Counted from the first letter of the stretch, positions 17,905 to 54,679 are shown. The stretch is 64,000 nt of DNA from Candidatus Schekmanbacteria bacterium RIFCSPLOWO2_02_FULL_38_14 (GCA_001790855.1 MGDH01000018.1:14207-78206), one strand, 5' to 3'. Translations and numbers: made by a program. The notes: a model not told the origin generated them from the sequence alone.

Positions 17905-17923
17905 TTGGAAATTGAAAATTTAT

Positions 17924-34445: not shown

Positions 34446-34949
34446 GTGGGGAAAATCCTATCTACTTTCTTTATTCTTGTTTTTATAGCTTCATTATTTT
34501 CATGCTTGAAAAGCTCAGAAGAATTACAACAGCCAATCAATTTTAATCACAAGAAACATATTGAGCAGGGAATTGAATGTGAAACCTGCCACATATACAT
34601 AAAAGAAGAAAGCTTTGCAGGACTTCCAGAGCTTCAAACCTGCCTCGACTGTCATGGGAGTCCTATAACAAAAAGCACTGAAGAGGAGAAGATAAGGAAT
34701 TTTGCAAAAAAGGGAATAAGTTTAGAATGGAAAAGAATATATAGGCTTCCTCAGCATGTATATTTCTCCCATAGAAGGCATGTAGCTTTTGCAAACTTAG
34801 AATGTCAAGTTTGTCATGGCGCAATTGGAGATGCTGTGAAGCCTCCAACAAAGCCTTTAAAGATTTTGATAATGAATGATTGCATAGATTGCCACAAGAG
34901 TTCCAAGAAAAGTAAGATAAGCGCTGATTGTATTGATTGTCATAAATAA
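34446..34949 (+). CDS. pentaheme c-type cytochrome (QrcA/ActA-like small periplasmic cytochrome)
   Basis: Signal peptide; five CxxCH (CETCH, CLDCH, CQVCH, CIDCH, CIDCH) in 167 aa. Confidence 0.8.
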   Translation: MGKILSTFFILVFIASLFSCLKSSEELQQPINFNHKKHIEQGIECETCHIYIKEESFAGLPELQTCLDCHGSPITKSTEEEKIRNFAKKGISLEWKRIYRLPQHVYFSHRRHVAFANLECQVCHGAIGDAVKPPTKPLKILIMNDCIDCHKSSKKSKISADCIDCHK

Positions 34950-34991
34950 AAAGATGATTACACAGATTATTTAGGAAGATTATACAGATTT

Positions 34992-37451
34992 ATGAAGAGA
35001 AGAAGATTTTTAAAGACATTGGGTGGAACATCAGCAGGGGTAGCACTCTCTTCTTGCACCAAGATAGAGAGTTTAAACAAAAAAATTGTAACTATAATTC
35101 CTGCAAAAGAAGAAGTAGTAGTTCCTAAAGGAGTAGAGAAATGGGTGATTTCATCATGTGGGCAATGCTCTGGAGGTTGCGGAATTAAGGTAAGACTTAT
35201 AAATGAAAGAGCTGTAAAAATTGATGGTAATCCACTGCATCCTGTAAACCAGGGAACCCTTTGTCCTAAAGGACAGTCAGGGTTACAGCTCCTTTATAAT
35301 CCAGACAGATTAAAAAGTCCTCTGAAAAGAAAAGGAAATAGGGGAGCAAATCAATGGAAAAAAATTAGCTGGGATGAGGCTGCTAAATTAGTGGTTGAAA
35401 AACTAAAAGAGATTCGAACAAATGGAAAAGCTCACCAACTAACTTTTCTATCAGGCGAATGTGGTGGTCTGATGAAAAGTTTGAGCAAAAGATTTTTAGA
35501 ATCATTCGGCTCCCCAAATTATTTTGATATTTCTGGTTCAATGGATGGTAATGACCAGGGGCCCTCAGACAGTCTTTTTGCAACTCAGGGTATCAGAAAA
35601 AATCCAGTCTATAATCTGGAAAAAACTAAATTAATTCTTTCCTTCGGCTCTAATTTTTTGGAATCTTTTTCATCTCCTGTACAGATTTCCCAGGCATATG
35701 GCTATTTCAGGAGAGAAAGGACAGGCTCAAGAGCCAAACTTATCCAAATAGACTCCAGGCTTTCAGTCACTGGCGCAAAAGCTGACGAATGGATTCCAAC
35801 AAACCCGGGCACATTAGGCGCTCTTGCACTGGGACTCGCTTATATAATTATAAAAGAGGACCTTTATGACAAGGATTTTATAGATGAAGACAGTTTTGGT
35901 TTTGAAGATTTCAAAGATGATAATGGCACATTACATCAAGGTTTTAAAAGAATGGTGCTTGATGAATATACATCCGGTGTAGTCTCCAAAATCACAGGAG
36001 TCTCAACAAATAATATAATAAGGCTTGCCAGAGAATTTGCCACAAATAAACCTGCTATTGCCATAAGTGATAAAATAGGAATATATGATCAGATAGCAAT
36101 TCATTGCCTCAATGCTTTATGCGGGAATATTGATGTTGAAGGAGGGGTTTTAGTACCTAGGGATGTCCCTCTTAAGAGCTTGCCTCCTTTTAAGCTTGAT
36201 GAGATCTCAAAAAAAGGCTTGTCAATGACAAGGGTCGACGGAAGTAACCCGGAGCAATCTTCTGTTTTTTTTAACCCTTTTAAATTTATTATAGAAGCAA
36301 ATGCAACAGGCAATCCCTATAAAATAGATGCCATTTTTATTTACAACTCAAATCCTTTATTTACTTATCCTGATAAAGAAAATTTGAAAAAATTCTTTGC
36401 AGAAATACCTTTCATCTTAAGTTTTTCCTCTTATCTTGATGAAACTTCAGAAATGGCTGATTTAATCTTACCAGATCACACCTATCTGGAAAAATGGGAA
36501 GATGTCCAGACAAACACCCTGAACGGATACCCTGTTTTAGGAATAAGACAACCTGTAGTCAGCAAAATTAATGATACCATGCACACTGGTGACTTTTTAC
36601 TGAAGGTTTCAAAAGAGATAGGGGGTCCGGTGGCGCAGGCTTTACCTTGGAATGATTTTAAAGATTTTCTTTCCTATAGCATTGAAGGAATTTACGAAAA
36701 TCAGAGTGGTAATATATTTGGACCAAAATTTGAAGAAGCATGGGTCCGCCTCCTTGAAAAAGGGGGATGGAGTATTCCTTTGCATTCATCTTTTGAAGAG
36801 TTCTGGAAAAAGGTATTAGAAAAGGGCGGCTGGTGGGATTCGATGTACTATTTTAATGAATGGAGCAGAATTTTTAATACCTTATCAGGAAAATTTGAAT
36901 TCTATTTTCAAACCCTGAAGAATGAGGTTGATAAAACAAAGGATGAAAGAAGAAAAGAGATATTTAAAATGTTAGGAGGGACTAAAGACAAAGGAAAAGA
37001 GGATAAAATATATATGCCCCATTATGAGGCAAAAGCAGAAACAAATGGAAAGAGTTATCCCTTTTATCTTAACGTCTATAAACTTATGTCGCTTTCAGGT
37101 TTAAATGTAACGAATCAGCCATGGCTTCAAGGAATTCTGGCAGTCAATGTTCCAATTAAATGGAATACATGGGTTGAAATAAATCCAGAAACTGCAAAGA
37201 AAATGGCTATATCTGAAGGAGACTTGGTTGTTGTAGAATCAATAAAAAGGAAAATAATTGTTTATGCTCATTTATATGAAGGTGCAATGCCTGAGGTAGT
37301 AAATATTCCTTTTGGGTTAGGGCATTCAGCAAATGGACGGTGGGCTAAAGATATAGGTAAGAATCCAGTTTCTATCCTGGAAGAATTTTCAGATCCGTTA
37401 ACTGGAAACTTCTTCAAAGATTACACACGGGTAAAAATCTATAAGGCTTAA
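34992..37451 (+). CDS. molybdopterin-oxidoreductase-family subunit, TAT-exported (PsrA/QrcB/ActB1-like)
   Basis: Twin-arginine signal MKRRRFLKTLGG; N-terminal CxxCxxxC...C FeS-0 motif (CGQCSGGCG...CPKG); 819 aa MopB fold. Confidence 0.8.
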   Translation: MKRRRFLKTLGGTSAGVALSSCTKIESLNKKIVTIIPAKEEVVVPKGVEKWVISSCGQCSGGCGIKVRLINERAVKIDGNPLHPVNQGTLCPKGQSGLQLLYNPDRLKSPLKRKGNRGANQWKKISWDEAAKLVVEKLKEIRTNGKAHQLTFLSGECGGLMKSLSKRFLESFGSPNYFDISGSMDGNDQGPSDSLFATQGIRKNPVYNLEKTKLILSFGSNFLESFSSPVQISQAYGYFRRERTGSRAKLIQIDSRLSVTGAKADEWIPTNPGTLGALALGLAYIIIKEDLYDKDFIDEDSFGFEDFKDDNGTLHQGFKRMVLDEYTSGVVSKITGVSTNNIIRLAREFATNKPAIAISDKIGIYDQIAIHCLNALCGNIDVEGGVLVPRDVPLKSLPPFKLDEISKKGLSMTRVDGSNPEQSSVFFNPFKFIIEANATGNPYKIDAIFIYNSNPLFTYPDKENLKKFFAEIPFILSFSSYLDETSEMADLILPDHTYLEKWEDVQTNTLNGYPVLGIRQPVVSKINDTMHTGDFLLKVSKEIGGPVAQALPWNDFKDFLSYSIEGIYENQSGNIFGPKFEEAWVRLLEKGGWSIPLHSSFEEFWKKVLEKGGWWDSMYYFNEWSRIFNTLSGKFEFYFQTLKNEVDKTKDERRKEIFKMLGGTKDKGKEDKIYMPHYEAKAETNGKSYPFYLNVYKLMSLSGLNVTNQPWLQGILAVNVPIKWNTWVEINPETAKKMAISEGDLVVVESIKRKIIVYAHLYEGAMPEVVNIPFGLGHSANGRWAKDIGKNPVSILEEFSDPLTGNFFKDYTRVKIYKA

Positions 37452-37465
37452 TCAAGAGGTATTTT

Positions 37466-38152
37466 ATGGCAAAATGGGGAATGGTTATAGATTTGGATAA
37501 ATGTACAGCCTGTCAAGCCTGCGTAGTTGCATGCCAGGCTGAAAACAACATTCCTATAGCAGGACCAAAAGAGACCCAGATGGGTAGGGCAATCCACTGG
37601 ATAGAACTAATATCTCATATAGAGGGGGAGTATCCTAACACCAAAATCAAGCTTATACCCAGACCCTGTTTCCATTGCGATGAACCCCCATGTATCAAGG
37701 TTTGTCCTGTAAGGGCTACTTATAAAAGCGAGGAAGAGGGAATAGTTGGACAGATATTCCCCAGGTGTATAGGCTGTCGTTACTGTACCACAGCATGTCC
37801 TTATACGGTACGGTATTTTAACTGGGAAAAACCCGAATGGCCGGAAATGATGAAAAACCTTCTTAATCCTGATGTATCAGTGAGGCCAAAAGGTGTTGTT
37901 GAGAAATGCAGTTTCTGCTATCACAGGCTGGTAAAGGCAAGAGAAAAAGCAAAAGCAGAAGGAAGAGATTTCTCTCCTGATGAATATATACCAGCATGTG
38001 TCCAAACATGTCCAAGCAAGGCAATGTATTTTGGTGATTTAAGCAATCCCAACAGTAAAGTCTCAATTCTGGCAAGAACCAACAGAGCTTTCAGAATTCT
38101 GGAAGATTTGGGAACAGAACCAAAGGTTATTTATCTCTCGGAAGGGGAATAG
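37466..38152 (+). CDS. 4Fe-4S ferredoxin-type electron-transfer subunit (PsrB/NrfC/QrcC-like)
   Basis: Four Cys clusters (CTACQACVVAC, CFHCDEPPCIKVCP, CIGCRYCTTACP, CSFC...C). Confidence 0.85.
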   Translation: MAKWGMVIDLDKCTACQACVVACQAENNIPIAGPKETQMGRAIHWIELISHIEGEYPNTKIKLIPRPCFHCDEPPCIKVCPVRATYKSEEEGIVGQIFPRCIGCRYCTTACPYTVRYFNWEKPEWPEMMKNLLNPDVSVRPKGVVEKCSFCYHRLVKAREKAKAEGRDFSPDEYIPACVQTCPSKAMYFGDLSNPNSKVSILARTNRAFRILEDLGTEPKVIYLSEGE

Positions 38153-38153
38153 G

Positions 38154-39488
38154 ATGGAGTTAAAGAACGCTAAAGTAAAAGATGAAGATCATATCCTCTT
38201 AGATCCAATCCTCAAAATAGGAAAGGGTTTTTATCTGACGGTAGTTATATTAGGGTCCTTTGTCCTGTTAGCAATTTATGCCTATATTACTCAATTCCAG
38301 AAAGGACTGGGGGTAACCGGATTAAATAGACCAACCTTCTGGGGAGTTTATATTACTAATTTTGTATTTTTCATAGGAATAAGCCATGCCGGCACTTTAA
38401 TATCAGCTATCCTGAGAATTGCTCAGGCTGAATGGAGAAGAGCAATTACAAGGTCTGCAGAAGTAATAACTGTTCTTGTTCTTTTCTTTGGAGTTGGGAA
38501 TATTCTGATTGATTTAGGAAGACCTGATAGGCTTTTTAATATGCTACTGTACGGCAGGTTTCAGTCACCACTCCTGTGGGATTTTGTTAGCATTTCAACC
38601 TATCTAACAGCAAGTACAATATACCTTTATCTTCCTTTAATTCCGGATATAGCCATTTTAAGAGATACTTCCGGCAAAAGAAAATGGCTATATAGTGTAT
38701 TAGCTTTAGGCTGGAAAGGAACAGAAAAGCAGCATCAAATTTTAGAAAAAGCCATAGCCATAATGGCAATATTAGTAATACCTATAGCAATTTCAGTTCA
38801 TACAGTGGTCTCTTTTGTTTTTGCAATGACAATTCAACCTATGTGGCATAGCGCAATTTTTGGCCCTTATTTTGTAGCAGGGGCGATATTTTCAGGTATT
38901 GCTGCTCTTATCATCGCCATGGCAATTATTAGAAAAGTTTATAAACTTGATAATTATCTGAAGGATATACATTTCAATAATCTGAGTCTCCTTTTGCTGG
39001 TAATGAGCTGTCTCTGGTTCTATTTTACATTCTGTGAATATATAACTGTCTTTTACGGCAGTGAACCAGTTCATTTAGCTGTCTTGTACTCTAAATTCAG
39101 CGGTGAATATGCCCTATATTTCTGGACTATGGTCGCAACCTGTTTTGTAATACCATTTTCTATCCTGTCAAACAGCAAGACCAGAACAATTACAGGTAGT
39201 GTAATAGCATCAATATCTGTAACCATTGGTATGTGGCTTGAACGTTTTACAATAGTTGTTCCAACCCTTGTTAATCCCAGACTCCCCTATGAGCGAGGCA
39301 TTTATCACCCAACATGGGTTGAGGCAGCTATAACAGCAGGCTCTCTCTCATTGTTCATTCTTCTATATATGATATTTACTAAGTTTTTCCCTATTGTATC
39401 TATCTGGGAAATAAAAGAGGGGAGAGAAAAAGGTGTAGCTGAGGTACAGGAGAGGATTAAAACTTACCTCCCTGGGTCTGAGACTTGA
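38154..39488 (+). CDS. NrfD/PsrC-family quinone-interacting integral membrane subunit (QrcD/ActC-like)
   Basis: 444 aa, ~10 TM helices; start overlaps upstream stop (translational coupling). Confidence 0.8.
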   Translation: MELKNAKVKDEDHILLDPILKIGKGFYLTVVILGSFVLLAIYAYITQFQKGLGVTGLNRPTFWGVYITNFVFFIGISHAGTLISAILRIAQAEWRRAITRSAEVITVLVLFFGVGNILIDLGRPDRLFNMLLYGRFQSPLLWDFVSISTYLTASTIYLYLPLIPDIAILRDTSGKRKWLYSVLALGWKGTEKQHQILEKAIAIMAILVIPIAISVHTVVSFVFAMTIQPMWHSAIFGPYFVAGAIFSGIAALIIAMAIIRKVYKLDNYLKDIHFNNLSLLLLVMSCLWFYFTFCEYITVFYGSEPVHLAVLYSKFSGEYALYFWTMVATCFVIPFSILSNSKTRTITGSVIASISVTIGMWLERFTIVVPTLVNPRLPYERGIYHPTWVEAAITAGSLSLFILLYMIFTKFFPIVSIWEIKEGREKGVAEVQERIKTYLPGSET

Positions 39489-39501
39489 AAAATATAAGGA
39501 G

Positions 39502-40731
39502 ATGTTTCAAATGGGATTTTTGAAATTAGTCTTTAGAAAATGGCGAATGAACTACAAGGTGTTCTTTTTAATATTAATCATATTTTCTTTTCTGCCATTA
39601 AATATTCATTCTGAGAAGAATACTAATCTTTTCCCTGAAAACCCTCTGGAAGGCTCGAAGATATTTGTGATTAAAGGTTGTGTAAAGTGTCATGCCATTA
39701 AGGGAGAGGGAGGAAATATAGGGGCAGATCTAGGCAAAGTCACCTTTAAAGATACATTGCTTGATATGGCAGGAATTATGTGGAACCATTTTCCGTTTAT
39801 GAGTGAAAAAATGGAGGAGGAGAAGATTGACTGGCCAAAGTTTTTAAGTGGGGAAATGGCAAGTCTAATAGGCTACCTTTATTATATAAATTATTTTGAT
39901 GAGCCAGGCAATACTAAAAAGGGAGAAAATTTATTTTCAGTAAAAGGGTGCGCGCAATGCCATGGCATAGAAAAAAAAGGTGGCAAACCAGGACCAAGTT
40001 TAAGTAAGTTTAAACGTGACTACTCACCAATCTTCATGGCACAAGCTATGTGGAATCATGGTTCTGAAATGGAGGCATCCATGAAGAAATTAGGGATTAA
40101 GAGACCTCAGTTTAATGATAAAGAGATGGCTGACCTATCTGCTTATATTAGAAAAGAAGCAAGAGGGGAAAAGAAGGGATATGGTTTTATGTTGCCTGGA
40201 AATCCAAAAGAGGGGAAACAACTTTTTAACAAAAAAGGATGCATACACTGTCATGCCATTTCAAATGAAGGTGGAAACATAGGGCCAGACCTTGGCAAAA
40301 AGGCAGAAGAGCTGCACAGGAGTCTAAATGAAGTAGCAGGCATTATGTGGAATCACTGGCCTAATATGTATAGAAAAATGATAGAGATGAGAATAGAGGT
40401 TCCAAGTTTTTCAGATAAAGAGATGGCAGACATAATAGCATATCTCTATTTTCTTGGATACTTTGATGAAAAAGGAGATATGAAAAAGGGGTCTATAATT
40501 TTCAATGAGAAGGGGTGTATTAAATGTCATTTTTTTGATGGAAAACAAATGATAGGGCCTGATTTGAGAAAATTATCTAATACTACTTCTTCCATAGAAG
40601 TTGTTACAGAGATGTGGAACCATGCCTCAAAGATGAAAAATAAAATGGCAGAGCTTAAAATCCAATGGCCCAAATTCAAAAAAGGCGAGGTAGCAGACCT
40701 TATGCAATATCTCAGGTCTTTAAAAAAATAA
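39502..40731 (+). CDS. tetra-domain c-type cytochrome (four class-I monoheme repeats, each with CxxCH...GG...MWNH)
   Basis: CVKCH, CAQCH, CIHCH, CIKCH each followed by GEGG/KGG and an MWNH motif ~25 residues later; N-terminal membrane anchor or signal. Confidence 0.75.
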   Translation: MFQMGFLKLVFRKWRMNYKVFFLILIIFSFLPLNIHSEKNTNLFPENPLEGSKIFVIKGCVKCHAIKGEGGNIGADLGKVTFKDTLLDMAGIMWNHFPFMSEKMEEEKIDWPKFLSGEMASLIGYLYYINYFDEPGNTKKGENLFSVKGCAQCHGIEKKGGKPGPSLSKFKRDYSPIFMAQAMWNHGSEMEASMKKLGIKRPQFNDKEMADLSAYIRKEARGEKKGYGFMLPGNPKEGKQLFNKKGCIHCHAISNEGGNIGPDLGKKAEELHRSLNEVAGIMWNHWPNMYRKMIEMRIEVPSFSDKEMADIIAYLYFLGYFDEKGDMKKGSIIFNEKGCIKCHFFDGKQMIGPDLRKLSNTTSSIEVVTEMWNHASKMKNKMAELKIQWPKFKKGEVADLMQYLRSLKK

Positions 40732-40854
40732 CAGGCTGCTTAATGTCATTTCTGCCTGCCTGTCGGCACCTGTCTGCCGCCTGACTGCCGTCAGGCAGGT
40801 CAGGCTGGGACAGGTAAGAGCAGGAATCCAAAAGCAAAGGAGGTTAATAATCTT

Positions 40855-41115
40855 TTGAATCAGCAGAGAGAAGTAATAAAAAATAAATCTGTAAATATTT
40901 TTCAATTACTGATGCTATTTGCTTTCTACTTGTTTGTTGGATCCATAATTGCCTTTGTTGTCAATGGAATTTATAATGCATTGGAAAATAATGATGCTTT
41001 TATGTATTCTATAGTTATAGGAGCAATAGTTATTCCTGTATTTTTGACTTTAACTATTCTGGTTACATTAGTTTTCTGGGTCATCGTGAGAGAAGGCAGG
41101 AAGGATATGAGGTAG
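40855..41115 (+). CDS. small 2-TM membrane protein (possible complex-associated subunit)
   Basis: 86-aa ORF with two hydrophobic helices between the two paralogous cytochrome genes; weak evidence only. Confidence 0.3.
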   Translation: MNQQREVIKNKSVNIFQLLMLFAFYLFVGSIIAFVVNGIYNALENNDAFMYSIVIGAIVIPVFLTLTILVTLVFWVIVREGRKDMR

Positions 41116-41120
41116 AGTTT

Positions 41121-42347
41121 ATGAAGAATCTAAAGAAAATTACCATCTATATGTTTTCAGTTTTTTTGATAGTAGGGTCATTATTAACCGTAGGAATAAA
41201 TGTTGTTTGCAGCACAGAAAAATACCTTTTGCCTGGAGATGCTAAAAAAGGGTGGCAGAGTTTTTTCACCAAAGGGTGCATCAAATGCCATTCTGTTTGG
41301 GGAGAGGGAGGTACAGCCGGTCCTAATCTTGGCATTACACCCTCTAAGCATTTGACTGAAGCAGAGCTTACAGCAGCCATGTGGAACCATGCTCCGGCAA
41401 TGTGGGAGAAAATGTTAGCAAAAGGGATAGATTTTAAAGCCATAAGCCAGGAAGAAATGGCTGATATATTCGCATTTCTCTACTTTATTAGATATATGGA
41501 TGAGCCAGGTAATAAGGAAAATGGAAAAGAGTTGCTGGCCACAAAAAAATGCACTAATTGCCATGCAATTCATGGAAAAGGAGGCAGAGTAGGGCCCGAG
41601 CTGACAAAATGGGGAACATATACTAATCCAATTCTGTGGGCGCAGATGATGTGGAATCATGCACCCCAGATGGAAGAGGAAATGAGGAACAGAGGAATAA
41701 CCTGGCCAATATTTGGTGAAAACGAGATGGTTGATATTATTGTTTATGTAAAGAGTGTCAGTAAATCGGGAGATAAAATTTTTATTTCACCAGGTGACTC
41801 AAAAGACGGTAAAATACTGTTTTCTAAAAAGGGTTGCAGCCATTGCCATTCTACCGAGACAGGTAGCAAAAAGGATGGACCAAATCTTGGAAGGGATTTA
41901 AGAAAAAAAGAATCTTTCCCAAGGACTATTACTCAGGTTGCAGGCCTTATGTGGAACCATTCTCCTGAAATGTGGAAAGAGATGAAAGAAAAGGGAATGA
42001 AGAGGCCAGAGCTCAATCCTCAAGAGATGGCAGATTTAATCGCATATCTTTTTTCTCTCCAATATTTTGATGAGCAAGGAAACAGAGAAAAAGGAGAAAA
42101 GGTATTTAAAGAAAAATATTGCATAAAGTGTCATACAGTGAATGGCAAAGGCGGTCTGAAAGGTCCTGACCTTAAGGAATGGCGCAGGCAGGTTTCGCCA
42201 ATTTCCATGGCGCAAGCTATGTGGAACCATGGTCCTTCAATGTTGGGAGAAATGAAAAAAATGGGCTTTAAATGGCCAAAGTTTGAAGGAAATGAGATAG
42301 TGGATTTGATGGAATATTTAAGAGAACTGGCTAATAAAACACTTTAA
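41121..42347 (+). CDS. tetra-domain c-type cytochrome, paralog of 39502-40731
   Basis: CIKCH, CTNCH, CSHCH, CIKCH with the same four-repeat layout and MWNH motifs; 408 vs 409 aa. Confidence 0.75.
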   Translation: MKNLKKITIYMFSVFLIVGSLLTVGINVVCSTEKYLLPGDAKKGWQSFFTKGCIKCHSVWGEGGTAGPNLGITPSKHLTEAELTAAMWNHAPAMWEKMLAKGIDFKAISQEEMADIFAFLYFIRYMDEPGNKENGKELLATKKCTNCHAIHGKGGRVGPELTKWGTYTNPILWAQMMWNHAPQMEEEMRNRGITWPIFGENEMVDIIVYVKSVSKSGDKIFISPGDSKDGKILFSKKGCSHCHSTETGSKKDGPNLGRDLRKKESFPRTITQVAGLMWNHSPEMWKEMKEKGMKRPELNPQEMADLIAYLFSLQYFDEQGNREKGEKVFKEKYCIKCHTVNGKGGLKGPDLKEWRRQVSPISMAQAMWNHGPSMLGEMKKMGFKWPKFEGNEIVDLMEYLRELANKTL

Positions 42348-42379
42348 GTTATATTATGTGAAAAAGGGAGGTTATTAAA

Positions 42380-46203: not shown

Positions 46204-46210
46204 GCAGAAG

Positions 46211-46345: not shown

Positions 46346-46355
46346 AGGTTAACTA

Positions 46356-46829: not shown

Positions 46830-46987
46830 AACATTTCTCCTCATCCTTTATCCTTCTCCCCATAGGGGAGAAGGCAGGTTGAGGGGGAGAAGAAAAACAT
46901 TCAACCCCAGAAGGGGTTTCCCACAGGAAATTGTGGGAGAGAATAAGAGGGACGACAGAGACGTCGTTCCCTACATGATAGGATAAT

Positions 46988-48472
46988 ATGGGGAATATAT
47001 TAAGCAAGTGGACTGAAAGAATTACACAAAACAGAATCTGGAAATCAATTTTCAGACATGGCTATCCTGATACAGAGCTTAATCAATCCCTTGTCATGTA
47101 TACCAATCTTTTTCTTCATATTCAACCTGTAAAGGTTCATAAAAATGTTTTAAGACCATCATATACCTTAAGCCTTGGTTTGATCTCTTTTATACTATTT
47201 CTTGTCCTTGTAATAACAGGGATATATTTAATGTTCTATTATGTCCCTTCAGTTGACAGGGCTTACAATGATATGAAGGAGCTTCAATTTGTTGTCTCCT
47301 TTGGCATATTTTTGAGAAACCTGCACCGATGGTCAGCTCATGGAATGGTGGCTGCAGTATTTTTACATATGTGCAGGGTTTTCTATACGGCTTCTTATAA
47401 ACCTCCAAGAGAATTTAACTGGGTCTTAGGAGTTATACTTTTAATAGTGACATTTGGTTTAAGTTTTACAGGCTATCTTCTTCCCTGGGACCAGCTTGCT
47501 TTCTGGGCAATTACAGTGGGTACAAGCATTGCCAGCTATGCACCAATTATTGGGCAGAAACTACGCTATTTTCTGTTAGGTGGGAATATTGTTGGGCAGA
47601 ATGCTCTTTTGCGGTTTTACGTTCTCCACTGCGTTGTTCTGCCATCAGTTGCTGCTGTCTTAATAGGAATACATTTCTGGCGGATAAGAAAGGATGGAGG
47701 GTTATCAAAGCCTGCAGAAAAATTAAAACAAGAAGAAAAGTTTGAAGAGCTGCAGGAAGAAGGGCTTTCCCCAAAAGGAACAAGTAAGACTTATGGTTTA
47801 ATGGAACTTGTAAAAGGTGCTACTATTCCTGTAGAACAGGAGCCCGAGAATGAGATAATGTCATGGCCACATTTGATCTTTAGAGAGTTCCTTGTCGCCA
47901 TAGTTGTTTTAGTAGTGCTTATTGCTATTTCCTTATTTTTTAATGCACCTCTTGAGGAGCTTGCAAATCCTTCAGAGCCTCCGAATCCAGCAAAGGCTCC
48001 ATGGTATTTCTTAGGACTTCAGGAGCTTGTATCTTATTCAGCCTTTATAGGAGGTGTAATTACACCTTTTCTTGTTGTTTTTGCGCTCCTGATGGCAATA
48101 CCTTATATAGATTACAGAGCAGAAGATGTGGGGATATGGTTTTCCTCTAAGAAGGGTCGTTTAATAGCATTAATTACAGCAACCCTGACATTAATAAGTA
48201 TTCCTGTCTTGATTTTTCTTAATATGAAATACGGGATTAGAGTTTTCTACCCTGATGCTCCTTCAATTCTTGTGGATTTGATAAATCCTGGAACAATTCT
48301 GATTGGAGTTACAGCAGTTATCTCAATTATTATAGGGGTCCGCACTAAGTCATGGAGGTTAGCTGCCATGATGATATTTACCTCCTTTGTAACTGGTTTT
48401 ATTGTGTTGACTGTTATTGGAACATTATTCAGGGGTCCTAACTGGGAGTTTGTTTTCCCATGGAAAGGATAA
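46988..48472 (+). CDS. cytochrome b (fused b6 + subunit-IV-like, 494 aa) of bc-type complex
   Basis: Conserved cytochrome b N-terminus ([12 protein letters not shown] ... [10 protein letters not shown]) and C-terminal PEWY-region equivalent ([10 protein letters not shown]); additional C-terminal TM helices. Confidence 0.85.
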
Positions 48473-48508
48473 AAAAATATATAGGAGTCTGTCAGAGAAC
48501 CCTTTTTT

Positions 48509-48659
48509 GTCATTGCGAGCGACTCCCTCGATATTGCTCGGGACAGGCTCCGGGAGCGTGGCAATCTCAAATCCCCCTATATCCCCCTTTTCCCTGCCTG
48601 CCGGTAGGCAAGTAAAGGGGGAGAAAAGAGGGATTGCTTTGGATTCGCCTCGCAATGAC
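48509..48659. repeat. nested palindromic element ~150 nt: family D termini, then GCAATCTC/GAGGGATTGC, then family B C-runs, then family C core
   Basis: gtcattgcgagcgactccc...gtggcaatctcaaatccccctatatcccccttttccctgcctgccggtaggcaagtaaagggggagaaaagagggattgctttggattcgcctcgcaatgac. Confidence 0.6.
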
Positions 48660-48713
48660 AAGAAAACTCATATTATTTAGAATTTCGAATTTAGGATTTT
48701 AGATTTTAAATAC

Positions 48714-49808
48714 ATGGTTAAATATTTTACATTTTTTAGTATTATTCTCCTGGTCTTTTTTTCTCTTGCCATCTTTAAGGATTATGATAGAGAGTGGAAG
48801 GATTTCCAGAAGAGGTTCTACGAGATTGAATCAGAGAGAGGAAAAAACGCTGAAGAGAAAAAAGTGATAAGAAATACTCCTTTGAGAATAAAACAGATAG
48901 TGTTAGAGGATTTGAATAGAGTTGATAGGTGCACAACCTGCCATCTCGGAATGGAATATGAGAAAAAGTCTTACAAAAAGAATCCATATAAGTCTCATCC
49001 CGACCCAACAATGCATCCCTTTGATCAATTTCCCTTTGATAGATTTGGATGCACCATCTGCCATGAAGGGCAGGGAAGAGCTACTACAAAGGATGATGCC
49101 CATGGTGATGTGGATTTCTGGGATAAGACCATGCTAAGGGGTATTTATCTGCAAGCCTCATGTCTAAAATGTCATGATGACCCTGACCTTAAGGGTGCTG
49201 AGATTGCAATGAAAGGGAAAAAACTTTTTGAGGAAAATGACTGCTATGAGTGTCATAAAGTAGGAGATAAAGGAGAAAGTGTAGGACCTGAGCTTACAAA
49301 GGAAGGATTAAAGACAAAACACCATTTTGATTTTACCCGTGTAAAGGGCAAGCACACTATTGCTAACTGGCAATTCGAGCATCTAAAAAATCCGGAAGCA
49401 GTTGTTCCTGATTCAGTGATGCCAAATTTGGAACTCAGTGATGAAGATGCAAGAGCCTTGACTATATATCTCTTAAGCCTTACTGATGAAAAGGTGCCAG
49501 AAGAATACATAGCGTCTCTAAAAAGAGGTCCTATCCTTGCATTAAGTAGAAAAGTTACAAAGCCTGAGATGAGTCCAGGTGAAAAGCTTTATATAGAGAT
49601 GAACTGCTATTACTGCCATAAGATAAAAGGGGAAGGAGGTGATGGAGCACCTGATTTAACTGGAGTTGGCGCAAGGCATGATGAAGATTGGCTTATAAAA
49701 CATTTTGACACTCCGCGGTCAATAAGTCCTCATTCTTTTATGCCTGACTATAAACTTACACCCGAGGAGATAAAGGCTCTGACAGATTTTATGTTGACTT
49801 TGAAATAG
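48714..49808 (+). CDS. pentaheme c-type cytochrome associated with the Rieske/cyt b genes (C-terminal class-I monoheme domain)
   Basis: N-terminal TM anchor; CTTCH, CTICH, CLKCH, CYECH, CYYCH; C-terminal CYYCHKIKGEGGDGAPDL...FMPDY typical class-I cytochrome c. Confidence 0.75.
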   Translation: MVKYFTFFSIILLVFFSLAIFKDYDREWKDFQKRFYEIESERGKNAEEKKVIRNTPLRIKQIVLEDLNRVDRCTTCHLGMEYEKKSYKKNPYKSHPDPTMHPFDQFPFDRFGCTICHEGQGRATTKDDAHGDVDFWDKTMLRGIYLQASCLKCHDDPDLKGAEIAMKGKKLFEENDCYECHKVGDKGESVGPELTKEGLKTKHHFDFTRVKGKHTIANWQFEHLKNPEAVVPDSVMPNLELSDEDARALTIYLLSLTDEKVPEEYIASLKRGPILALSRKVTKPEMSPGEKLYIEMNCYYCHKIKGEGGDGAPDLTGVGARHDEDWLIKHFDTPRSISPHSFMPDYKLTPEEIKALTDFMLTLK

Positions 49809-49840
49809 CTATGAGACAAAGGTTTTCATAAAACAATCAA

Positions 49841-50000
49841 GCCCAGAAGGGCTTTTCCACAGTTTTATGTGGGAGAGCCTTTTTAGGCTCGATAGCGAAG
49901 AAAAAAATAAGGAGGTGATGAGACAAGCTACATAGTAAGGGAAAGAGTTTAGATTTAAATTCTGTTAGCTACCGGATATATTTAAGAAAAAGGAGGAACT
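49841..50000 (+). promoter_or_regulatory. conserved leader/promoter module (copy 1): GCCC-AGAA-GGGC hairpin, CCACAG-TTTTAT-GTGGGAG hairpin, GAGCC-TTTTT-AGGCTC hairpin, A-rich tract, TTTAGATTTAAATTCTGTTAGCTACCGGATATATTTAAG, AGGAGG RBS
   Basis: Near-identical ~140-nt block recurs at 53010-53149 upstream of the next gene; hairpins and a TTGAAT/TTTAAA-17nt-ATATAT promoter-like spacing seen in sequence. Confidence 0.45.
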
Positions 50001-52790
50001 ATGATTGAAGAAGTATTTTTGATACTGAAAAGAAAATGGTTTATATGTGCATTGGCTTTTCTTTTTGCCATTTCAGCATCCTATGTTTTTGAGAAAGAAG
50101 CCAGTGCAGCAAAAACTTATAACATAGTGGTTAAGATAAAGTCAAATAAAGCCACTAACAGAACAGGCGTAGCGGTAGAGGTCACAGGAGGAGATTTAAC
50201 AACACCCAAGACTGCTACAACGAAAAAAACAGGTATTGTAAAGTTTACAAAACTTGCTAAAGGAACTTACACTGTTACTCCTGCAAAGGAAGGCTATACC
50301 TTTGACCCTGAATCAAAGCCTGTTACATTTGCAACAAGGAGAACAGTAAATGTTGTTTTTAAGTCAACAGAGGTTGTAATTCCTGTTACTGAAGAGGCTA
50401 TAACTCTGTCAACATCTGCAAACGGGACTCACTTTGCTGCGGGTGAGAAACCAATAATCACCATTTCTCTGCCCGACCTGTCCAGCCGCAGTGACTATTC
50501 GCAGCTACGCCTGGTGGTTTATGGTCCACAGGAAACGACCAAGACTAAAACAGCGGTGAATCTGCTCAATGCGTCCACTGACCGTTCCTTAGCTAACACG
50601 GGCCCGCATCACTACATTGACCTCGTTACAGACACCAATGTTCAGCTCAATGATAATATTCTGACCTATACGCTCCAGCCAATCACAGATGAAGAAGCAG
50701 GGACATACACAGCAAGTTTGTGGGCTGTTTTGAAAGATGACCCTTCTGTGCAGTCGTTCCCGCTTGCTGATTTCCAGATTGGAACAGCTACTGCTGAGAC
50801 GCAAATAGTAGAGAGGGAAAATTGTTCTGTCTGCCATAAGGGTGCTGATAGCGGGAAATATTACTTCCATCACATAGATCCTCGTACCGCCGGTTCATCT
50901 GGATACCCATCAATTGACTCGTGGGCAGTGAGAACGTGCAAGAGCTGCCATAACACAGATGGCTATGCAGCATACACTGATCCCGCTAATCCCTCTGCCA
51001 CTGATGGCTCTAATAAAATTCCGGATCCGATTGTAAAGCGTGTACATGGTGTTCATATGGGAGAGGAGTTAAAGAACGCGCTCAACACTGACGCGACGAC
51101 AGGTATTTTCAAAAACTACACAAGTGTGGTATTTCCTGCAAATGTCAAGAACTGCACTATGTGTCACGTGGATGATAAATGGAAGACCACACCTTCACGT
51201 CTTGCTTGTGGCGCCTGCCATGATAATATCTGGTTTGGTGATCCGGCAGCCCTTCCTTCAGGACAAGAGGCACATCCTGGTTTACAACAGGATAGCGATA
51301 CCGGATGCTCTACCTGCCACCCTGCAGATGGTTCATGGACCAAGGGTTCGGCACCTGCACCCATTTCAACGGTTCACAAGGTTGATTCGCCAGCTTACAA
51401 GTATACTGTAGAGATTAGCCTAAGCGCACCGGCAAATGAGACTCACTATGTTGCGGGCGAGGCGCCTCAGGTAACAATAACAATCAAAGATGCTACCACT
51501 GGTGCCACAATTGACCCGAACACGCTAACAGAGACCGCCTTCAGCCGTGCCTCTCTCTACGTCTCCGGCCCGCGTGAAAATACAAAACCTGTGCTTACCA
51601 CCTCGGCCAAGGGCCTTGGAGCCGTCCGTGCTTTGGCGACGAACAGCAAGGATGGACCCTGGGATCTGTCAGGCGACCCTACCTTTATCATTGGCATTGA
51701 CGGTACCTCCCGCACGGTAACGGCTGCGGCAAGTAATTTCGCAAATCCGGCAGCTGCGACCCAGGCAGAGGTCATTACATGGCTGAAAAAGGCGCTTCCT
51801 GATGGCATTGGCGATGTGGCGACAGTCTCTGCGTCTGGCACAACAAAAGTCACGATTAAAAGCAATACCAGAGGCTCGACATCCAAGGTCGAGATCTTTG
51901 CAAGTTCAGTTGCAACGGCTATGGGGTGGACCGTTGGTGCGAAAACCCCTACACCTCGTTCCTATGCCAGCAATGACTTCCGCGTCCGCAAAGATTCTTT
52001 TGATGAGGATCCGAAGGTGAGTCGTTCCACCACTGCAGTTACGTACCAGTTAGACGATGTTGCCGGTCTGACCTCAGGCACCTATACTGCTTTTGCCCAG
52101 ATGAGTCCGACATCTGGTTTTGGCGGCTCGGCGGTGGTCAATTTCCAAGTGGGTGGGGCTACAGAAGAAAAGAAGGTTGCTACAAACTGTACCAATTGCC
52201 ATGGTGATACAACAATGCACAGCACCTCCTTATCAGTGCCATTCAATCCAGACATCTGCAAGAACTGCCACGATTACAATCGTGAGGGGACTGGATATGG
52301 TTGGGCCGGCGCTCCCCCGACCGGAACGAACGGGACCTCAACGAGCGGCTGGAGCGGTTTTGGTGCCAAGCCCTTATCAAGCAGAATCCACGGTGTTCAC
52401 CGCGGTCGTTATCTGGAGCATCCTGAGGATGTAAAACCACTGTATAGGCTCGTAAGCGGGGTTGCCACGTATTGGCCTGAATACGATTTCTCTGAAGTGA
52501 TTTTCCCTCAGGATATAAGAAACTGCACCAAGTGTCACAGCGCCGATACGACCGGGACTTGGAAGACAGAACCATCTCGGTTAGCCTGTCTTGCCTGCCA
52601 CGACAACGATGAGGCAACTACCCACGGTAATCTGATGACGTATGATACGACACCTACAGATCCATGGAGCGGTGATGAGATAGAGACATGTGTTGTGTGT
52701 CATGGTTCTGGTAGGGACTTTTCTCCTGACAAGGTGCACAATATCTCGAGTCCCTATAAGCCACCGTATCTACGAGAGCCTGCAGAGTAA
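50001..52790 (+). CDS. large secreted decaheme c-type cytochrome (929 aa), mosaic composition
   Basis: Signal/anchor N-terminus, beta-sandwich N-domain. Ten CxxCH sites: CSVCH, CKSCH, CTMCH, CGACH, CSTCH, CTNCH, CKNCH, CTKCH, CLACH, CVVCH. Internal duplicated module (CxxCH...WKT.PSRLAC.ACHDN occurs twice). Bases ~50420-52790 are ~55% GC vs ~33% elsewhere. Confidence 0.8.
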   Translation: MIEEVFLILKRKWFICALAFLFAISASYVFEKEASAAKTYNIVVKIKSNKATNRTGVAVEVTGGDLTTPKTATTKKTGIVKFTKLAKGTYTVTPAKEGYTFDPESKPVTFATRRTVNVVFKSTEVVIPVTEEAITLSTSANGTHFAAGEKPIITISLPDLSSRSDYSQLRLVVYGPQETTKTKTAVNLLNASTDRSLANTGPHHYIDLVTDTNVQLNDNILTYTLQPITDEEAGTYTASLWAVLKDDPSVQSFPLADFQIGTATAETQIVERENCSVCHKGADSGKYYFHHIDPRTAGSSGYPSIDSWAVRTCKSCHNTDGYAAYTDPANPSATDGSNKIPDPIVKRVHGVHMGEELKNALNTDATTGIFKNYTSVVFPANVKNCTMCHVDDKWKTTPSRLACGACHDNIWFGDPAALPSGQEAHPGLQQDSDTGCSTCHPADGSWTKGSAPAPISTVHKVDSPAYKYTVEISLSAPANETHYVAGEAPQVTITIKDATTGATIDPNTLTETAFSRASLYVSGPRENTKPVLTTSAKGLGAVRALATNSKDGPWDLSGDPTFIIGIDGTSRTVTAAASNFANPAAATQAEVITWLKKALPDGIGDVATVSASGTTKVTIKSNTRGSTSKVEIFASSVATAMGWTVGAKTPTPRSYASNDFRVRKDSFDEDPKVSRSTTAVTYQLDDVAGLTSGTYTAFAQMSPTSGFGGSAVVNFQVGGATEEKKVATNCTNCHGDTTMHSTSLSVPFNPDICKNCHDYNREGTGYGWAGAPPTGTNGTSTSGWSGFGAKPLSSRIHGVHRGRYLEHPEDVKPLYRLVSGVATYWPEYDFSEVIFPQDIRNCTKCHSADTTGTWKTEPSRLACLACHDNDEATTHGNLMTYDTTPTDPWSGDEIETCVVCHGSGRDFSPDKVHNISSPYKPPYLREPAE

Positions 52791-52811
52791 ATAAAGCAAG
52801 GTGGATTCGTT

Positions 52812-52856
52812 AACAAGCCTATTCCCGATGGGGGGGGGTAGGCTTGTTATTTTATC
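52812..52856 (+). terminator. rho-independent terminator after the decaheme gene (aacaagcct...aggcttgtt + T-run)
   Basis: 9-bp stem, G-run loop, followed by attttat. Confidence 0.5.
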
Positions 52857-53009
52857 AAATATTTCTAATTAGCCATATGAGATATTATAGGAGGAAGAGA
52901 TAAAGGTTCTGATTAAATAGAGGTTGACTTTGAAATAGGTATAGGCTAAAAGTTTTTGCAAAATAATCGGCCCCACAGAAGGGGCCTCCCCTGCCTGCGG
53001 TAGGCAGGC

Positions 53010-53149
53010 ACAGTTTTATGTGGGAGCGCCTTTCAAGGCTCGATATAGAAAAGAAAAAAATGGAAAGGGGTGATGCAATAGAATAGATAAAAACTGGAGA
53101 AGGTTAGATTTGAATTCTGTTAGCTACCGAATATATTTAAGGAGGATAT
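53010..53149 (+). promoter_or_regulatory. conserved leader/promoter module (copy 2), paralogous to 49841-50000
   Basis: cacagttttatgtgggagcgcctttcaaggctcgata...ttagatttgaattctgttagctaccgaatatatttaaggagg atg; a family-C palindrome is inserted just upstream (52988-53011). Confidence 0.45.
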
Positions 53150-54679
53150 ATGAAGAGAAATTTATTTTTGACGACAATTTTCGTAGGAGTGTTTATCTCC
53201 TCGATTCTTTCCTTTTCCTATGCCACTGCTAAGGGGAAACCAGGAAAGAAGCCAACGGTTATAAGCATAACCCCGAAAACAGGAGCACAAGGGGAACCCC
53301 TTGATGTAACTATAAAAGGAAAGAATTTTGTTGACACACCTACTGTTAGTTTAGGCGCAGGGATAACTGTGAATGGAGTTGAGTTTGTCTCAGCGACAAA
53401 GTTAACTGCAAACATCACTATTGCCTCAGATGCTAAGATAGGACCAAAACCTGTAACTGTTACTAATCCTGATGGGAAAAAAAGCCAGGCAAAGAAAATT
53501 TTCAAGGTTAAGAAAAGCACATTACCTCAGGCTGATATAATTGCTAAAAAGGTAACAGATGAACCAGGTGAGGCTGATTGGGCAAAAATATCTGGTTCAT
53601 TAATCCAGACAACAGGCAACCCAGCAACTGGAGGACATGGTGCTCTCGGTGAAGAGAATCTCGTTGCAGTAAAGCTTCAGGCATCTCATGACAGCACAAA
53701 TATCTTCATGAGATTTGAATGGGATGACTCAACCCAGAATAACACCCATGAGGTCTGGACATATAGTGCAAGCAGTAGCACATGGTCTAAAGCTGGCAAT
53801 GAGGACAGAATTCTTATTGCATGGCCAATTACAGACGTTGCTGGCAGAGAGGGAAAAACTTTTCAGGAGATTGGATGTGCAATGCTCTGCCACCTGAAGG
53901 ATGCAAATGACCCAACTAAAACTAAGATTGTGCCTAACACCACTGACGCAGTCAATGATTGTTCAGTTTGCCATCCAAATTCTTCAGGTAAAGATACAAC
54001 CTTTGTCCATGTATTACCTACATCAGCTCAAACTTGTATTAGCTGCCATGCTGATAGGGAGATTGAAGAGATTGCTGATATGGGTTCACCTTCTGGTGGT
54101 GCCTTTGACATCTGGCACTGGAAAGCTGGAAGAAGCGATGGTATAGGACTTGCTGAGGACCAGGAAGCATCTGACGGCAAACTTCGAACAAATGATGGTG
54201 CAGGGCTTACAAGCAATAACGATGGTCCTGCTGGATTCACGGACAGGCCAAAATATATCTGGACTGCTGCTTCAGGTAAAGGAGCTTCTCCTGTAACAGA
54301 GATAATAAAGAATAGCGAGATCGCATCCCTTAAGGCTTCAAATTACCTTGCTGAGATAAATGCTACTGATGGGAAATATTATCTTAGCAATGGAACAACT
54401 GAAGAAGTTCTAGGGGATGGTGCGCAAGTGAGGAGAAGAATCCTTAAGGATGGAACCAATATTACAGAGCCTGGCAATGGAGATATCAAGGCATCAAGCG
54501 GCTATTTAGACGGAAAATGGACAGTAGTACTTAAGAGAAAACTCAATACTACTGACACTAAAGACTATGTGTTCAAAACAGGTGAAACTGATATAAACTA
54601 CTTTGGATTTGCTGTCACTGACAACAGCGGGAACAGCCATAAAGCAAAGGCTTTGCTGAAATTGAGGTTTGGGCAGTAA
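53150..54679 (+). CDS. secreted IPT/TIG-domain protein with c-type heme motifs (one CX3CH plus two CxxCH)
   Basis: Signal peptide. N-terminal IPT/TIG-like Ig domain (VISITPKTGAQGEPLDVTIKGKNF). Heme motifs GCAMLCH (verified on DNA: tgt gca atg ctc tgc cac), CSVCH, CISCH. Confidence 0.65.
   Translation: MKRNLFLTTIFVGVFISSILSFSYATAKGKPGKKPTVISITPKTGAQGEPLDVTIKGKNFVDTPTVSLGAGITVNGVEFVSATKLTANITIASDAKIGPKPVTVTNPDGKKSQAKKIFKVKKSTLPQADIIAKKVTDEPGEADWAKISGSLIQTTGNPATGGHGALGEENLVAVKLQASHDSTNIFMRFEWDDSTQNNTHEVWTYSASSSTWSKAGNEDRILIAWPITDVAGREGKTFQEIGCAMLCHLKDANDPTKTKIVPNTTDAVNDCSVCHPNSSGKDTTFVHVLPTSAQTCISCHADREIEEIADMGSPSGGAFDIWHWKAGRSDGIGLAEDQEASDGKLRTNDGAGLTSNNDGPAGFTDRPKYIWTAASGKGASPVTEIIKNSEIASLKASNYLAEINATDGKYYLSNGTTEEVLGDGAQVRRRILKDGTNITEPGNGDIKASSGYLDGKWTVVLKRKLNTTDTKDYVFKTGETDINYFGFAVTDNSGNSHKAKALLKLRFGQ

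Follow-up and report, generated by a model that had tools for sequence, protein, structure and literature searches.

An anammox-type Rieske/cytochrome b complex linked to an undescribed Qrc/ACIII-related module in Candidatus Schekmanbacteria

The role of Rieske/cytochrome b (R/b) complexes that carry an NAD(P) oxidoreductase has so far been argued almost only from bacteria performing anaerobic ammonium oxidation (anammox). The association of such a flavoprotein with R/b subunits is already published (Kartal 2013 and Dibrova 2013, both as cited in PMC5600118). In PMC5600118, Kartal and colleagues are credited with proposing quinol bifurcation to NAD(P)H, and Dibrova et al. with observing that cytochromes b of subfamily G accompany such oxidoreductases "in many other cases" and that long G' cytochromes b occur "in large conserved operons ... 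of an unknown function". Even in Kuenenia, a coupling of NAD(P)+ reduction to the oxidation of quinol is hypothetical (PMC12954380). Three further systems invite comparison: QrcABCD, the menaquinone reductase of sulfate-reducing Desulfobacterota; alternative complex III (ACIII, ActABCDEF); and the Geobacter cluster extKLMNOPQS with the extHIJ porin cluster. The locus described here occupies positions 34446-54679 of a 64,000-nucleotide stretch (the window) of Candidatus Schekmanbacteria bacterium RIFCSPLOWO2_02_FULL_38_14 (MGDH01000018.1:14207-78206), and joins what by its sequence is an R/b complex of the anammox type to an undescribed complex related to Qrc and ACIII.

The source is uncultured, belongs to the Rifle aquifer series of metagenome-assembled genomes (MAGs) and has a GC content of about 38%. 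The cluster is built of three layers: module 1, related to Qrc and ACIII; module 2, of the anammox type; and lineage-specific parts. Listing and translation of open reading frames (ORFs) give 16 intact, co-oriented + strand ORFs. An earlier note, made from the sequence alone, had listed 15 genes, all of which are present as intact + strand ORFs; an 86-aa two-helix ORF at 40855-41115 had been overlooked and adds to them. Its figure of about 40 CxxCH sites is close to the 39 counted, to which one CxxxCH is added; along the cluster the counts are 5, 0, 0, 0, 4, 0, 4, 5, 4, 0, 0, 0, 5, 10 and 2, where we estimate from composition that chance would give well below one in the approximately 6,500 residues encoded. 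Searches with Pfam and NCBIfam agree with each of its domain calls across the whole cluster. Two of the ways in which, according to the note, its reading could fail are addressed by the sequence. CxxCH proteins devoid of export signals are not what is found, since hydropathy places an N-terminal hydrophobic segment in every c-type cytochrome and none in the flavoprotein. Nor is the cluster an assembly chimera without synteny elsewhere, because the identical gene order is repeated on more than 20 independently assembled contigs of up to 191 kb, three NCBI Schekmanbacteria MAGs among them; entries for Schekmanbacteria MAGs contain proteins identical to the window MopB, flavoprotein, cytochrome b and decahaem cytochrome, among others.

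Module 1 (34446-42347) consists of seven genes:

34446-34949, + strand: c5A, a pentahaem c3/c7-type cytochrome, QrcA-like, with a possible lipobox LFSC (5 CxxCH; NCBIfam QrcA, 104 bits, cutoff 180)
34992-37451, + strand: MopB-like subunit exported by twin-arginine translocation (Tat), with the FS0 [4Fe-4S] cysteines kept and no Cys or Sec at the Mo-ligand position (Pfam, NCBIfam and alignments)
37466-38152, + strand: four-cluster iron-sulfur (FeS) subunit, QrcC-like (NCBIfam QrcC, 315.8 bits, cutoff 400)
38154-39488, + strand: NrfD-like quinone-interacting membrane subunit with 8-10 transmembrane (TM) helices by hydropathy (PF03916, 121 bits; DsrP, 132 bits; QrcD, 41 bits)
39502-40731, + strand: c4x1, a membrane-anchored cytochrome of four class-I cytochrome c domains (4 CxxCH, with an MWNH motif after each)
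40855-41115, + strand: sm86, a small protein with two TM helices by hydropathy, likely an extra subunit
41121-42347, + strand: c4x2, a second tetra-domain class-I cytochrome c, paralogue of c4x1 (4 CxxCH)

Two c554-like cytochromes lie between the modules:

42380-43549, + strand: c5B, a c554/ExtKL-like cytochrome with five haems, none of them in its C-terminal half; a mobile accessory to module 1 (5 CxxCH; PF13435; NCBIfam ExtKL, 74.7 bits)
43673-44245, + strand: c4, a c554-like tetrahaem cytochrome (4 CxxCH; PF13435, 72.6 bits)

Module 2 (44299-49808) consists of four:

44299-46203, + strand: cytoplasmic NfnB/GltD-like flavoprotein for flavin adenine dinucleotide (FAD) and NAD(P), with sites for four FeS clusters (PRK12771, 464 bits; no TM helix)
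46356-46829, + strand: Rieske [2Fe-2S] protein, anammox type (PDB 9rk4, 87.5 bits; 9rk3, 78.2 bits; CPCHGSIF)
46988-48472, + strand: cytochrome b6 and five-helix subunit IV, fused (haem His 113, 127, 214 and 229; His44; without the CxGG haem-cn cysteine)
48714-49808, + strand: c5C, an anchored pentahaem cytochrome with three c7-like haems and two class-I domains, in place of cytochrome f/c1 (5 CxxCH; Pfam)

The new element is the linkage of these two modules. It was tested from the MopB side in metagenomes because a scan of a genome collection with a flavoprotein profile did not reach the source genome or its close relatives, which were not among the matches listed. Contigs (designated by L numbers) were chosen by the MopB profile alone, neighbours were found by tblastn with all window proteins, and only contigs with at least 8 kb downstream of MopB were counted, grouped by MopB identity:

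48-52% identity: tetra-domain cytochromes in 9 of 9, flavoprotein in 9 of 9
41.5-47% identity: tetra-domain cytochromes in 7 of 8, flavoprotein in 4 of 8
below 41.5% identity: tetra-domain cytochromes in 0 of 6, flavoprotein in 0 of 6

The flavoprotein accompanies MopB in 13 of the 17 contigs with at least 41.5% identity. Cytochrome b is found in eight of the nine contigs of the highest class, as is the Rieske protein, and in six of the eight of the middle class. At least five gene orders occur among the linked loci (Flav, flavoprotein; cytb, cytochrome b; suIV, subunit IV; c4x, tetra-domain cytochrome; sm, small two-helix protein; cNMP, cyclic nucleoside monophosphate):

(i) Schekmanbacteria: ...NrfD-c4x-sm-c4x-(c5B)-c4-Flav-Rieske-cytb-c5C, kept at only 72-75% MopB identity (L093/L178, L094)
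(ii) Thermodesulfobacteriota type: ...c4x-c4x-(cNMP-binding protein)-Flav-cytb-suIV-Rieske-c (L095, a Thermodesulfobacteriota MAG; L106, L112 and others)
(iii) ...NrfD-c4x-Flav-Rieske-cytb-c5C (L129, L133, L138)
(iv) MopB-FeS-NrfD-Flav-Rieske-cytb-c5C-c4x-c4x (L145, with module 2 nested in module 1)
(v) NrfD-c4x-Flav-Rieske-cytb-suIV-c (L179)

In L098 and L167 the R/b genes lie just 5' of module 1. If a genome of several megabases holds one or two R/b loci, we estimate the chance of finding one within 10 kb at well below 1%. The five arrangements indicate that the linkage has been repeatedly maintained or re-created, though relatedness among the contigs inflates the counts. The joining of a MopB module to a bc-type module, to which the earlier note had drawn attention, is not accidental, the two being adjacent in L093/L178, L094, L095 and many metagenome contigs. 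Its description as a non-textbook arrangement holds for the pairing of the modules, on which literature searches turned up nothing except for the comment about "large conserved operons of unknown function" in PMC5600118, and does not hold for the flavoprotein-R/b association. The same kind of R/b complex is repeatedly and specifically paired with an undescribed Qrc/ACIII-like complex, characterized by a MopB with FS0 only and two tetra-domain cytochromes c, across Schekmanbacteria, Thermodesulfobacteriota and other uncultured lineages. This pairing offers a comparative handle on the source or sink of the high-potential electron, and suggests a widespread modular way to connect cytoplasmic NAD(P)H with the pools of quinone and of periplasmic cytochromes.

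A comparison of module 1 with QrcABCD shows the same order of multihaem c, MopB-like, FeS and NrfD-like subunits. The FeS subunit has QrcC as its top score, and the MopB-like subunit is without a catalytic ligand in both (PMC13059093). There are also differences. Among NCBIfam models the first three subunits come closest to QrcA, QrcB and QrcC, but the membrane subunit scores higher with DsrP than with QrcD. All four Qrc models fall under their cutoffs (QrcA 104/180, QrcB 310/440, QrcC 316/400, QrcD 41/570), the cytochrome has five haems instead of six, a small TM protein and two tetra-domain class-I cytochromes come in addition, and the window holds no dsr or periplasmic hydrogenase genes. 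QrcB is reported to be free of cofactors (PMC13059093), and the window MopB differs from it because its FS0 cysteines and domain IV (PF01568, 38 bits) are kept. Module 1 is a seven-gene module rather than a four-gene Qrc. With ACIII it has in common a pentahaem cytochrome, a cofactor-poor MopB-like module, FeS clusters, an NrfD-like quinol site and class-I haem subunits; it departs from ACIII in having separate MopB and FeS genes and no fused ActB, one NrfD-like subunit and not two (ActC, ActF), and eight class-I haem domains as against the monohaem ActE. A complex so composed would be expected to act, like ACIII, as a quinone:cytochrome c oxidoreductase. Of the Qrc/ACIII/Psr-like module named in the earlier note, the Qrc/ACIII-related composition stands; its MopB falls outside Qrc, ACIII and Psr. 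Canonical membership in Qrc, ACIII, Psr/Phs or Arr was excluded by NCBIfam cutoffs, the FS0 motif, the ligand loop and gene architecture.

MopB proteins of 39-52% identity are kept together with c5A, the FeS subunit and NrfD; the c5A gene lies ahead of MopB in most related loci with upstream sequence, and the FeS subunit retains 53-92% identity among related loci. The tetra-domain cytochromes and the small two-helix protein come after NrfD in loci whose MopB identity is 41.5-52%, and c4x1 is directly 3' of NrfD in most related loci that have it. The two paralogues are about 41-43% identical, with four CxxCH...MWNH repeats each. The sm86 protein is kept in L093, L094, L097 and L178, and small unannotated ORFs occupy its position in L096 and L097. 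Of the c554-like cytochromes, c5B changes position among L096, L097, L094, L135 and L154, and no homologue of it was found at the L093 locus; c4 is kept in Schekmanbacteria relatives.

A subgroup with about 40% MopB identity was considered as true Qrc and rejected, as the L157 proteins miss the Qrc cutoffs and score higher with ArrA. A sulfate-reducer context was likewise set aside, dsr genes having been reported within Schekmanbacteria only for the different lineage RBG_13_48_7. In this subgroup, where neither tetra-domain cytochromes nor genes for R/b occur, haem O synthase is encoded (L157, 8482-9369) just 5' of the pentahaem/MopB/FeS/NrfD genes, which hints at a link with aerobic respiration. 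Clusters of the Thermodesulfobacteriota type have a third quinone module directly 5' of the pentahaem/MopB module (6387-9103 in L095, and likewise in L106, L112, L120 and L170); it encodes a small cytochrome c, an FeS protein of 301 aa and an NrfD-like protein.

Module 2 is classed as an anammox-type R/b complex with cytochrome b of subfamily G and an NAD(P) oxidoreductase. The reference complexes are those of Kuenenia (Kustd1480-1485 and Kuste4569-4574), in which an NfnB/GltD-like FAD/FeS flavoprotein also adjoins a Rieske protein and a b6-type cytochrome b. Besides FAD and NAD(P) folds, the window flavoprotein has a two-cluster Fer4_20 domain at the N terminus and a 2x[4Fe-4S] domain at the C terminus; its top PDB matches are Nfn-type and GltD-type chains, and four clusters are likewise modelled for Kustd1483 and Kuste4570 (PMC12954380). 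The Rieske protein is closest to two PDB chains that fit Kuenenia proteins by motif (PMC12954380, PMC5600118): 9rk4 and 9rk3 outscore all b6f Rieske proteins, and their sequence motifs fit Kuste4569 and Kustd1480 of Kuenenia stuttgartiensis. The Ser of CPCHGS is present and Phe stands at the Tyr position, as in Kustd1480 (PMC12954380), features that fit a high-potential Rieske protein of the anammox type. Cytochrome b is b6-like (152 bits), its four haem histidines are invariant, and hydropathy gives five C-terminal helices in the subunit IV part, the number also found in the Kuenenia complexes (PMC12954380). In both, a multihaem c stands in place of cytochrome f/c1. For the Kuenenia complexes an extra haem b has been modelled with AlphaFold3 on an N-terminal histidine, His43 of Kuste4571 or His62 of Kustd1481, where it would bridge haem bN to the FeS chain of the flavoprotein (PMC12954380). 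The window protein also has an N-terminal histidine, His44 in an NxxLH motif, which occurs in 31 of 31 flavoprotein-linked cytochromes b and by analogy is no more than suggestive of a ligand for an extra haem b at the dimer interface.

Unlike the Kuenenia complexes, module 2 has its cytochrome b fused to subunit IV and is without the CxGG haem-cn cysteine. Its c subunit carries five haems and two class-I domains, where theirs is hexa- or octahaem. It has no HAO-like partner, its host lies outside the anammox bacteria, and it is linked to MopB, FeS and NrfD genes. The flavoprotein adjoins Rieske and cytochrome b genes in at least 20 genome loci, a c5C-type pentahaem gene follows cytochrome b in at least 16 loci from several phyla, and the full order of flavoprotein, Rieske, cytochrome b and pentahaem is found again in Acidobacteriota, Eisenbacteria, Abyssobacteria and Planctomycetota among the matches listed. 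The NAD(P) domain of the flavoprotein contains an insertion of about 50 aa at residues ~255-315, with a short duplication (AMDVARSAIRKG / AMDVARLALRKG); the family consensus has this insertion too, and it may serve for docking. In L180 (4317-14897) a close flavoprotein-R/b homologue of 58% identity comes right after genes for a NapC-type cytochrome, an FeS protein, a MopB of another kind (27% identity) and a chaperone of the NarJ/TorD type, and there is a porin gene upstream. Several kinds of periplasmic MopB modules may be partners for R/b-flavoprotein complexes.

The recurrent linkage of the modules argues for a functionally coupled menaquinol/cytochrome c/NAD(P) unit, and on balance it is probable that the two quinone-interacting complexes act as one such unit, supplemented by exchangeable periplasmic cytochromes. 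From the observed composition, homology, cofactor motifs, topology and conserved linkage we infer electron paths, NAD(P) reduction and a direction of flow as follows. Module 1, as a menaquinone:cytochrome c oxidoreductase, would move electrons between the NrfD quinone site, four FeS clusters, the pentahaem cytochrome, a putative lipoprotein, and the two tetra-domain cytochromes. Module 2 would oxidise menaquinol at its Qo site, sending one electron through the Rieske protein and the pentahaem c to the cytochrome c pool and the other through the b haems, possibly including an extra haem b at His44, to the four FeS clusters, FAD and NAD(P)+. The c-type cytochromes common to both modules would connect them; the nesting in L145 and the tetra-domain cytochrome genes that lie between or after the modules favour such shared carriers. 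The c554-like proteins and the 3' cassettes would couple the pool to the donor or acceptor of each lineage. The bifurcating route to NAD(P)H raised in the earlier note coincides with the hypothesis published for the homologous anammox complexes (PMC12954380), and this model of Kartal and colleagues gains plausibility for module 2 because high Rieske potentials were measured for Kuenenia (PMC12954380).

The direction of module 1 admits three options. It could return the high-potential electron to the quinone pool at the cost of proton-motive force (pmf), feed the quinone pool from periplasmic donors in the manner of Qrc, or serve as a second quinol oxidase. A closed loop, possibly a physical supercomplex, built on the first of these is unlikely: here the R/b complex would bifurcate menaquinol electrons between NAD(P)+ and the tetra-domain cytochromes, and the Qrc/ACIII-like complex would return the high-potential electron to the menaquinone pool by means of the pmf, giving a pmf-driven menaquinol:NAD(P)+ oxidoreductase. 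If true, it would supply organisms living on high-potential donors with reverse electron transport independent of complex I, and the anammox-type R/b complexes, long debated, would have a role that is general and can be tested outside anammox.

Several points weigh against a single coupled unit. All the genomes are of uncultured organisms. The contigs of the 48-52% class probably come from related organisms and cannot be counted as independent events; module 1 is found with no module 2 in its vicinity in L096, L097 and L125, and module 2 without module 1 in many phyla. Both modules nominally carry out the same reaction, quinol to cytochrome c, for which reason the purpose of pairing them can only be conjectured. 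Stable hairpins in the spacers could divide transcription. The MopB subunit keeps a Tat signal, FS0, a Lys after the fourth FS0 cysteine and domain IV, and may hold a Mo cofactor with a non-canonical protein ligand or none. Finally, a trio of sensor genes upstream, beginning with a PhnD-like protein, hints at an oxyanion signal.

The last two points lead to a different reading, in which the MopB/FeS/NrfD module is a true molybdoenzyme of the Psr/Phs/Ttr/Arr kind, a periplasmic reductase or dehydrogenase for an oxyanion or sulfur compound, given the high-potential electron of the bifurcation by the R/b complex much as has been proposed for the HAO-like subunit in Kuenenia R/b-3. We regard this as doubtful. 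It is true that the closest solved relative of the window MopB is ArrA, over the full length and at 250 bits, with PsrA next, and that similarity to ActB of ACIII is confined to the N-terminal third in the PDB comparison (49-62 bits). The Tat-type signal RRRFLK, the FS0 cysteines C56, C59, C63 and C91 (conserved in at least 119 of 120 homologues) and domain IV are also kept, though Tat signal and domain IV would fit either the presence or the absence of the molybdenum bis-molybdopterin guanine dinucleotide cofactor. A PhnD-like protein, kinase and regulator stand upstream, as they do in L171, whose MopB has the Arr-like loop HSSIC, and the L180 locus, with its chaperone and NapC-type cytochrome beside a flavoprotein-R/b complex, argues that R/b complexes can pair with real molybdoenzymes. 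Other features weigh against it. The loop after GSPN reads ISGSMDGNDQ, with no conserved Cys, Sec or Ser at the ligand position; depending on the alignment, the ligand Cys of ArrA falls on Ser183 or Met184, and that of PsrA on Asp185. This loop is hypervariable over the family in the MopB alignment (homologues in L098-L177). An Arr-like cysteine is retained in some lineages (HSSIC in L171, STASGC in L127; also L169, L135 and L136), and it is gone in every lineage whose locus has tetra-domain cytochromes and the flavoprotein, where the loops read NQFQW, GNDN or, in Schekmanbacteria, ISGSMDGNDQ. The Arr substrate motif (R/K)GRY, RGRY in Arr, is replaced by SGEC in the window and by SG(E/K)(C/S) in all Schekmanbacteria relatives. 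The cluster has no chaperone gene, and all NCBIfam scores for catalytic enzymes are far under their cutoffs.

The MopB-like subunit is most likely, on this sequence evidence, a non-catalytic scaffold, or on the way to becoming one, that has retained FS0. The NuoG domain of complex I is a comparable case of a MopB-related scaffold. The series of loops across lineages is possibly a record of the transition from enzyme to scaffold. This MopB lineage would then illustrate, through stepwise loss of the catalytic ligand, a route by which enzymes become electron-transfer scaffolds.

Quinol-driven extracellular electron transfer, the leading idea of the earlier note, would have both quinol oxidases load periplasmic cytochromes that discharge to a surface MtrC-like decahaem protein. 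It seems very improbable as the core function. The idea draws on the 3' end of the cluster:

49764-49986, + strand: leader copy 1, the 3' end of the pentahaem c5C gene and the spacer ahead of the decahaem gene (duplicated at 52894-53141)
50001-52790, + strand: MtrC/OmcA-like decahaem cytochrome with an Ig-like N-terminal module, a variable cassette (10 CxxCH; PF22113, 92.8 bits; TIGR03507, 183.6, cutoff 209.3)
52894-53141, + strand: leader copy 2, with a decayed remnant of the 3' end of the pentahaem c5C gene (repeat comparison)
53150-54679, + strand: secreted protein with TIG and EB_dh domains, the latter an NxrC-like haem b domain; 2 CxxCH and 1 CxxxCH; a cassette specific to the lineage (PF09459, 96 bits; PF01833)

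The decahaem protein matches domains II/IV of MtrC/MtrF at 92.8 bits, PF22113 covering two stretches of it (two pentahaem MtrC-type domains), and comes close to the OmcA/MtrC cutoff. Housekeeping genes flank the cluster, and those for a FadL-like porin and for a resistance-nodulation-division (RND) efflux system, TolC-like protein included, mark the organism as diderm. Geobacter extHIJKLMNOPQS unites a porin, an R/b core (ExtO, ExtP, ExtQ), the c554-like pentahaem ExtKL and multihaem cytochromes (PMC5877670), and the NCBIfam models of ExtP, ExtQ and ExtKL match window proteins, namely the cytochrome b and the c554-like protein. No flavoprotein or MopB/NrfD module is described for Geobacter, however, and the window cluster is without porin and rhodanese. 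Neither the cluster nor the Pfam-scanned ORFs of the window yielded an MtrA/MtrB-like or other porin-cytochrome gene. The decahaem protein has an ordinary Sec signal and no lipobox, its gene differs in GC content (48.9%, against 36-40% in its neighbours), and the linked clusters of other lineages lack it. Class-I cytochromes, usually of high potential, are the conserved carriers.

The decahaem and TIG/EB_dh genes are in fact lineage-specific. In L178 the gene at the decahaem position has its first 121 aa (signal and Ig-like domain) in common with the decahaem protein, followed by an unrelated eight-haem body, and no EB_dh homologue was found there. Because L178 carries this different haem body and no EB_dh, the 3' end is a cassette slot outside the conserved core. 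The high GC of the decahaem gene, the flanking 235-nt duplication and a terminator had suggested that it was inserted recently by horizontal transfer, an idea dropped after this comparison; since L178 keeps both the leader motif and the 121 aa ahead of another haem body, cassette exchange behind a conserved N-terminal module is preferred. The duplicated leader spans about 235 nt at 81% identity and includes the last codons of the pentahaem gene, one copy lying ahead of the decahaem gene and the other ahead of the TIG/EB_dh gene. Its core motif AATTCTGTTAGCTACCG also stands 5' of the cassette gene in L178. One N-terminal module, a signal with an Ig-like CarboxypepD_reg/SpaA domain, is found in L178 at 11414-13735 and 17236-19578 and in the window at 50001-50363, with 53-74% identity and unrelated haem bodies. 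This pattern suggests that the secreted cytochromes of Schekmanbacteria may undergo domain or cassette shuffling. The TIG/EB_dh protein has a weak PDB match to Kuenenia NxrC (7b04_C).

Independent respiratory operons lying merely side by side, a "respiratory island" without direct functional coupling, are quite unlikely: the 123-359 nt spacers do hold strong hairpins, some with U-tracts, the regulators of close relatives differ, and each module is also found alone, yet the linkage spans at least two phyla and unassigned lineages and survives rearrangement, including the interleaved L145, the module genes abut or overlap in L095 and L179, and the large spacers here are filled with repeats like repetitive extragenic palindromes (REP; family D7) that are present elsewhere in the window.

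A coupled menaquinol/cytochrome c/NAD(P) unit could be expressed from a single operon across the cluster, which is plausible. The co-oriented run begins upstream at 30037 and includes three sensor genes:

31249-32178, + strand: PhnD-like periplasmic solute-binding protein, likely a sensor partner (PF12974, 208.7 bits)
32186-33643, + strand: sensor histidine kinase (sCache_3_2, HAMP, HisKA_3, HATPase_c; Pfam)
33615-34274, + strand: NarL/LuxR-type response regulator (Response_reg and GerE; start from gene calls on L001)

In L093 and L094, the closer Schekmanbacteria relatives, a sigma-54 type kinase/regulator pair stands in the place of this trio. Given these differing regulators and the very stable hairpins in several spacers, the "one regulated" unit of the earlier note is unsupported. 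In L171 (1433-5230) a PhnD-like homologue of 46% identity, followed by a histidine kinase and a LuxR-type response regulator, precedes the related MopB with the cysteine-containing HSSIC loop.

A scan for sigma-70 promoters gave no signal beyond shuffled background, and an Rfam scan of the window gave zero matches. Spacers of 1-53 nt join c5A to c4x1, sm86 to c5B, and c4 to the flavoprotein. The larger spacers, of 123-359 nt, contain GC-rich palindromes with folding z-scores of -4 to -7, and U-tracts follow some of the hairpins, such as those after the flavoprotein and decahaem genes. The corresponding genes of modules 1 and 2 abut or overlap in other lineages (L095, L179). The highest-ranked hairpin of this kind on the + strand of the cluster is:

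52811-52849, + strand: intrinsic-terminator-like hairpin, a 16-bp stem then a U-tract

Strongly folding GC-rich palindromic elements, which resemble REP elements or miniature inverted-repeat transposable elements, occupy the spacers at 40732-40854, 46204-46355 and 46830-46987 in an otherwise AT-rich genome. Repeat family D7 has copies at 48563-48639 and 55924-56000 that are 94% identical.

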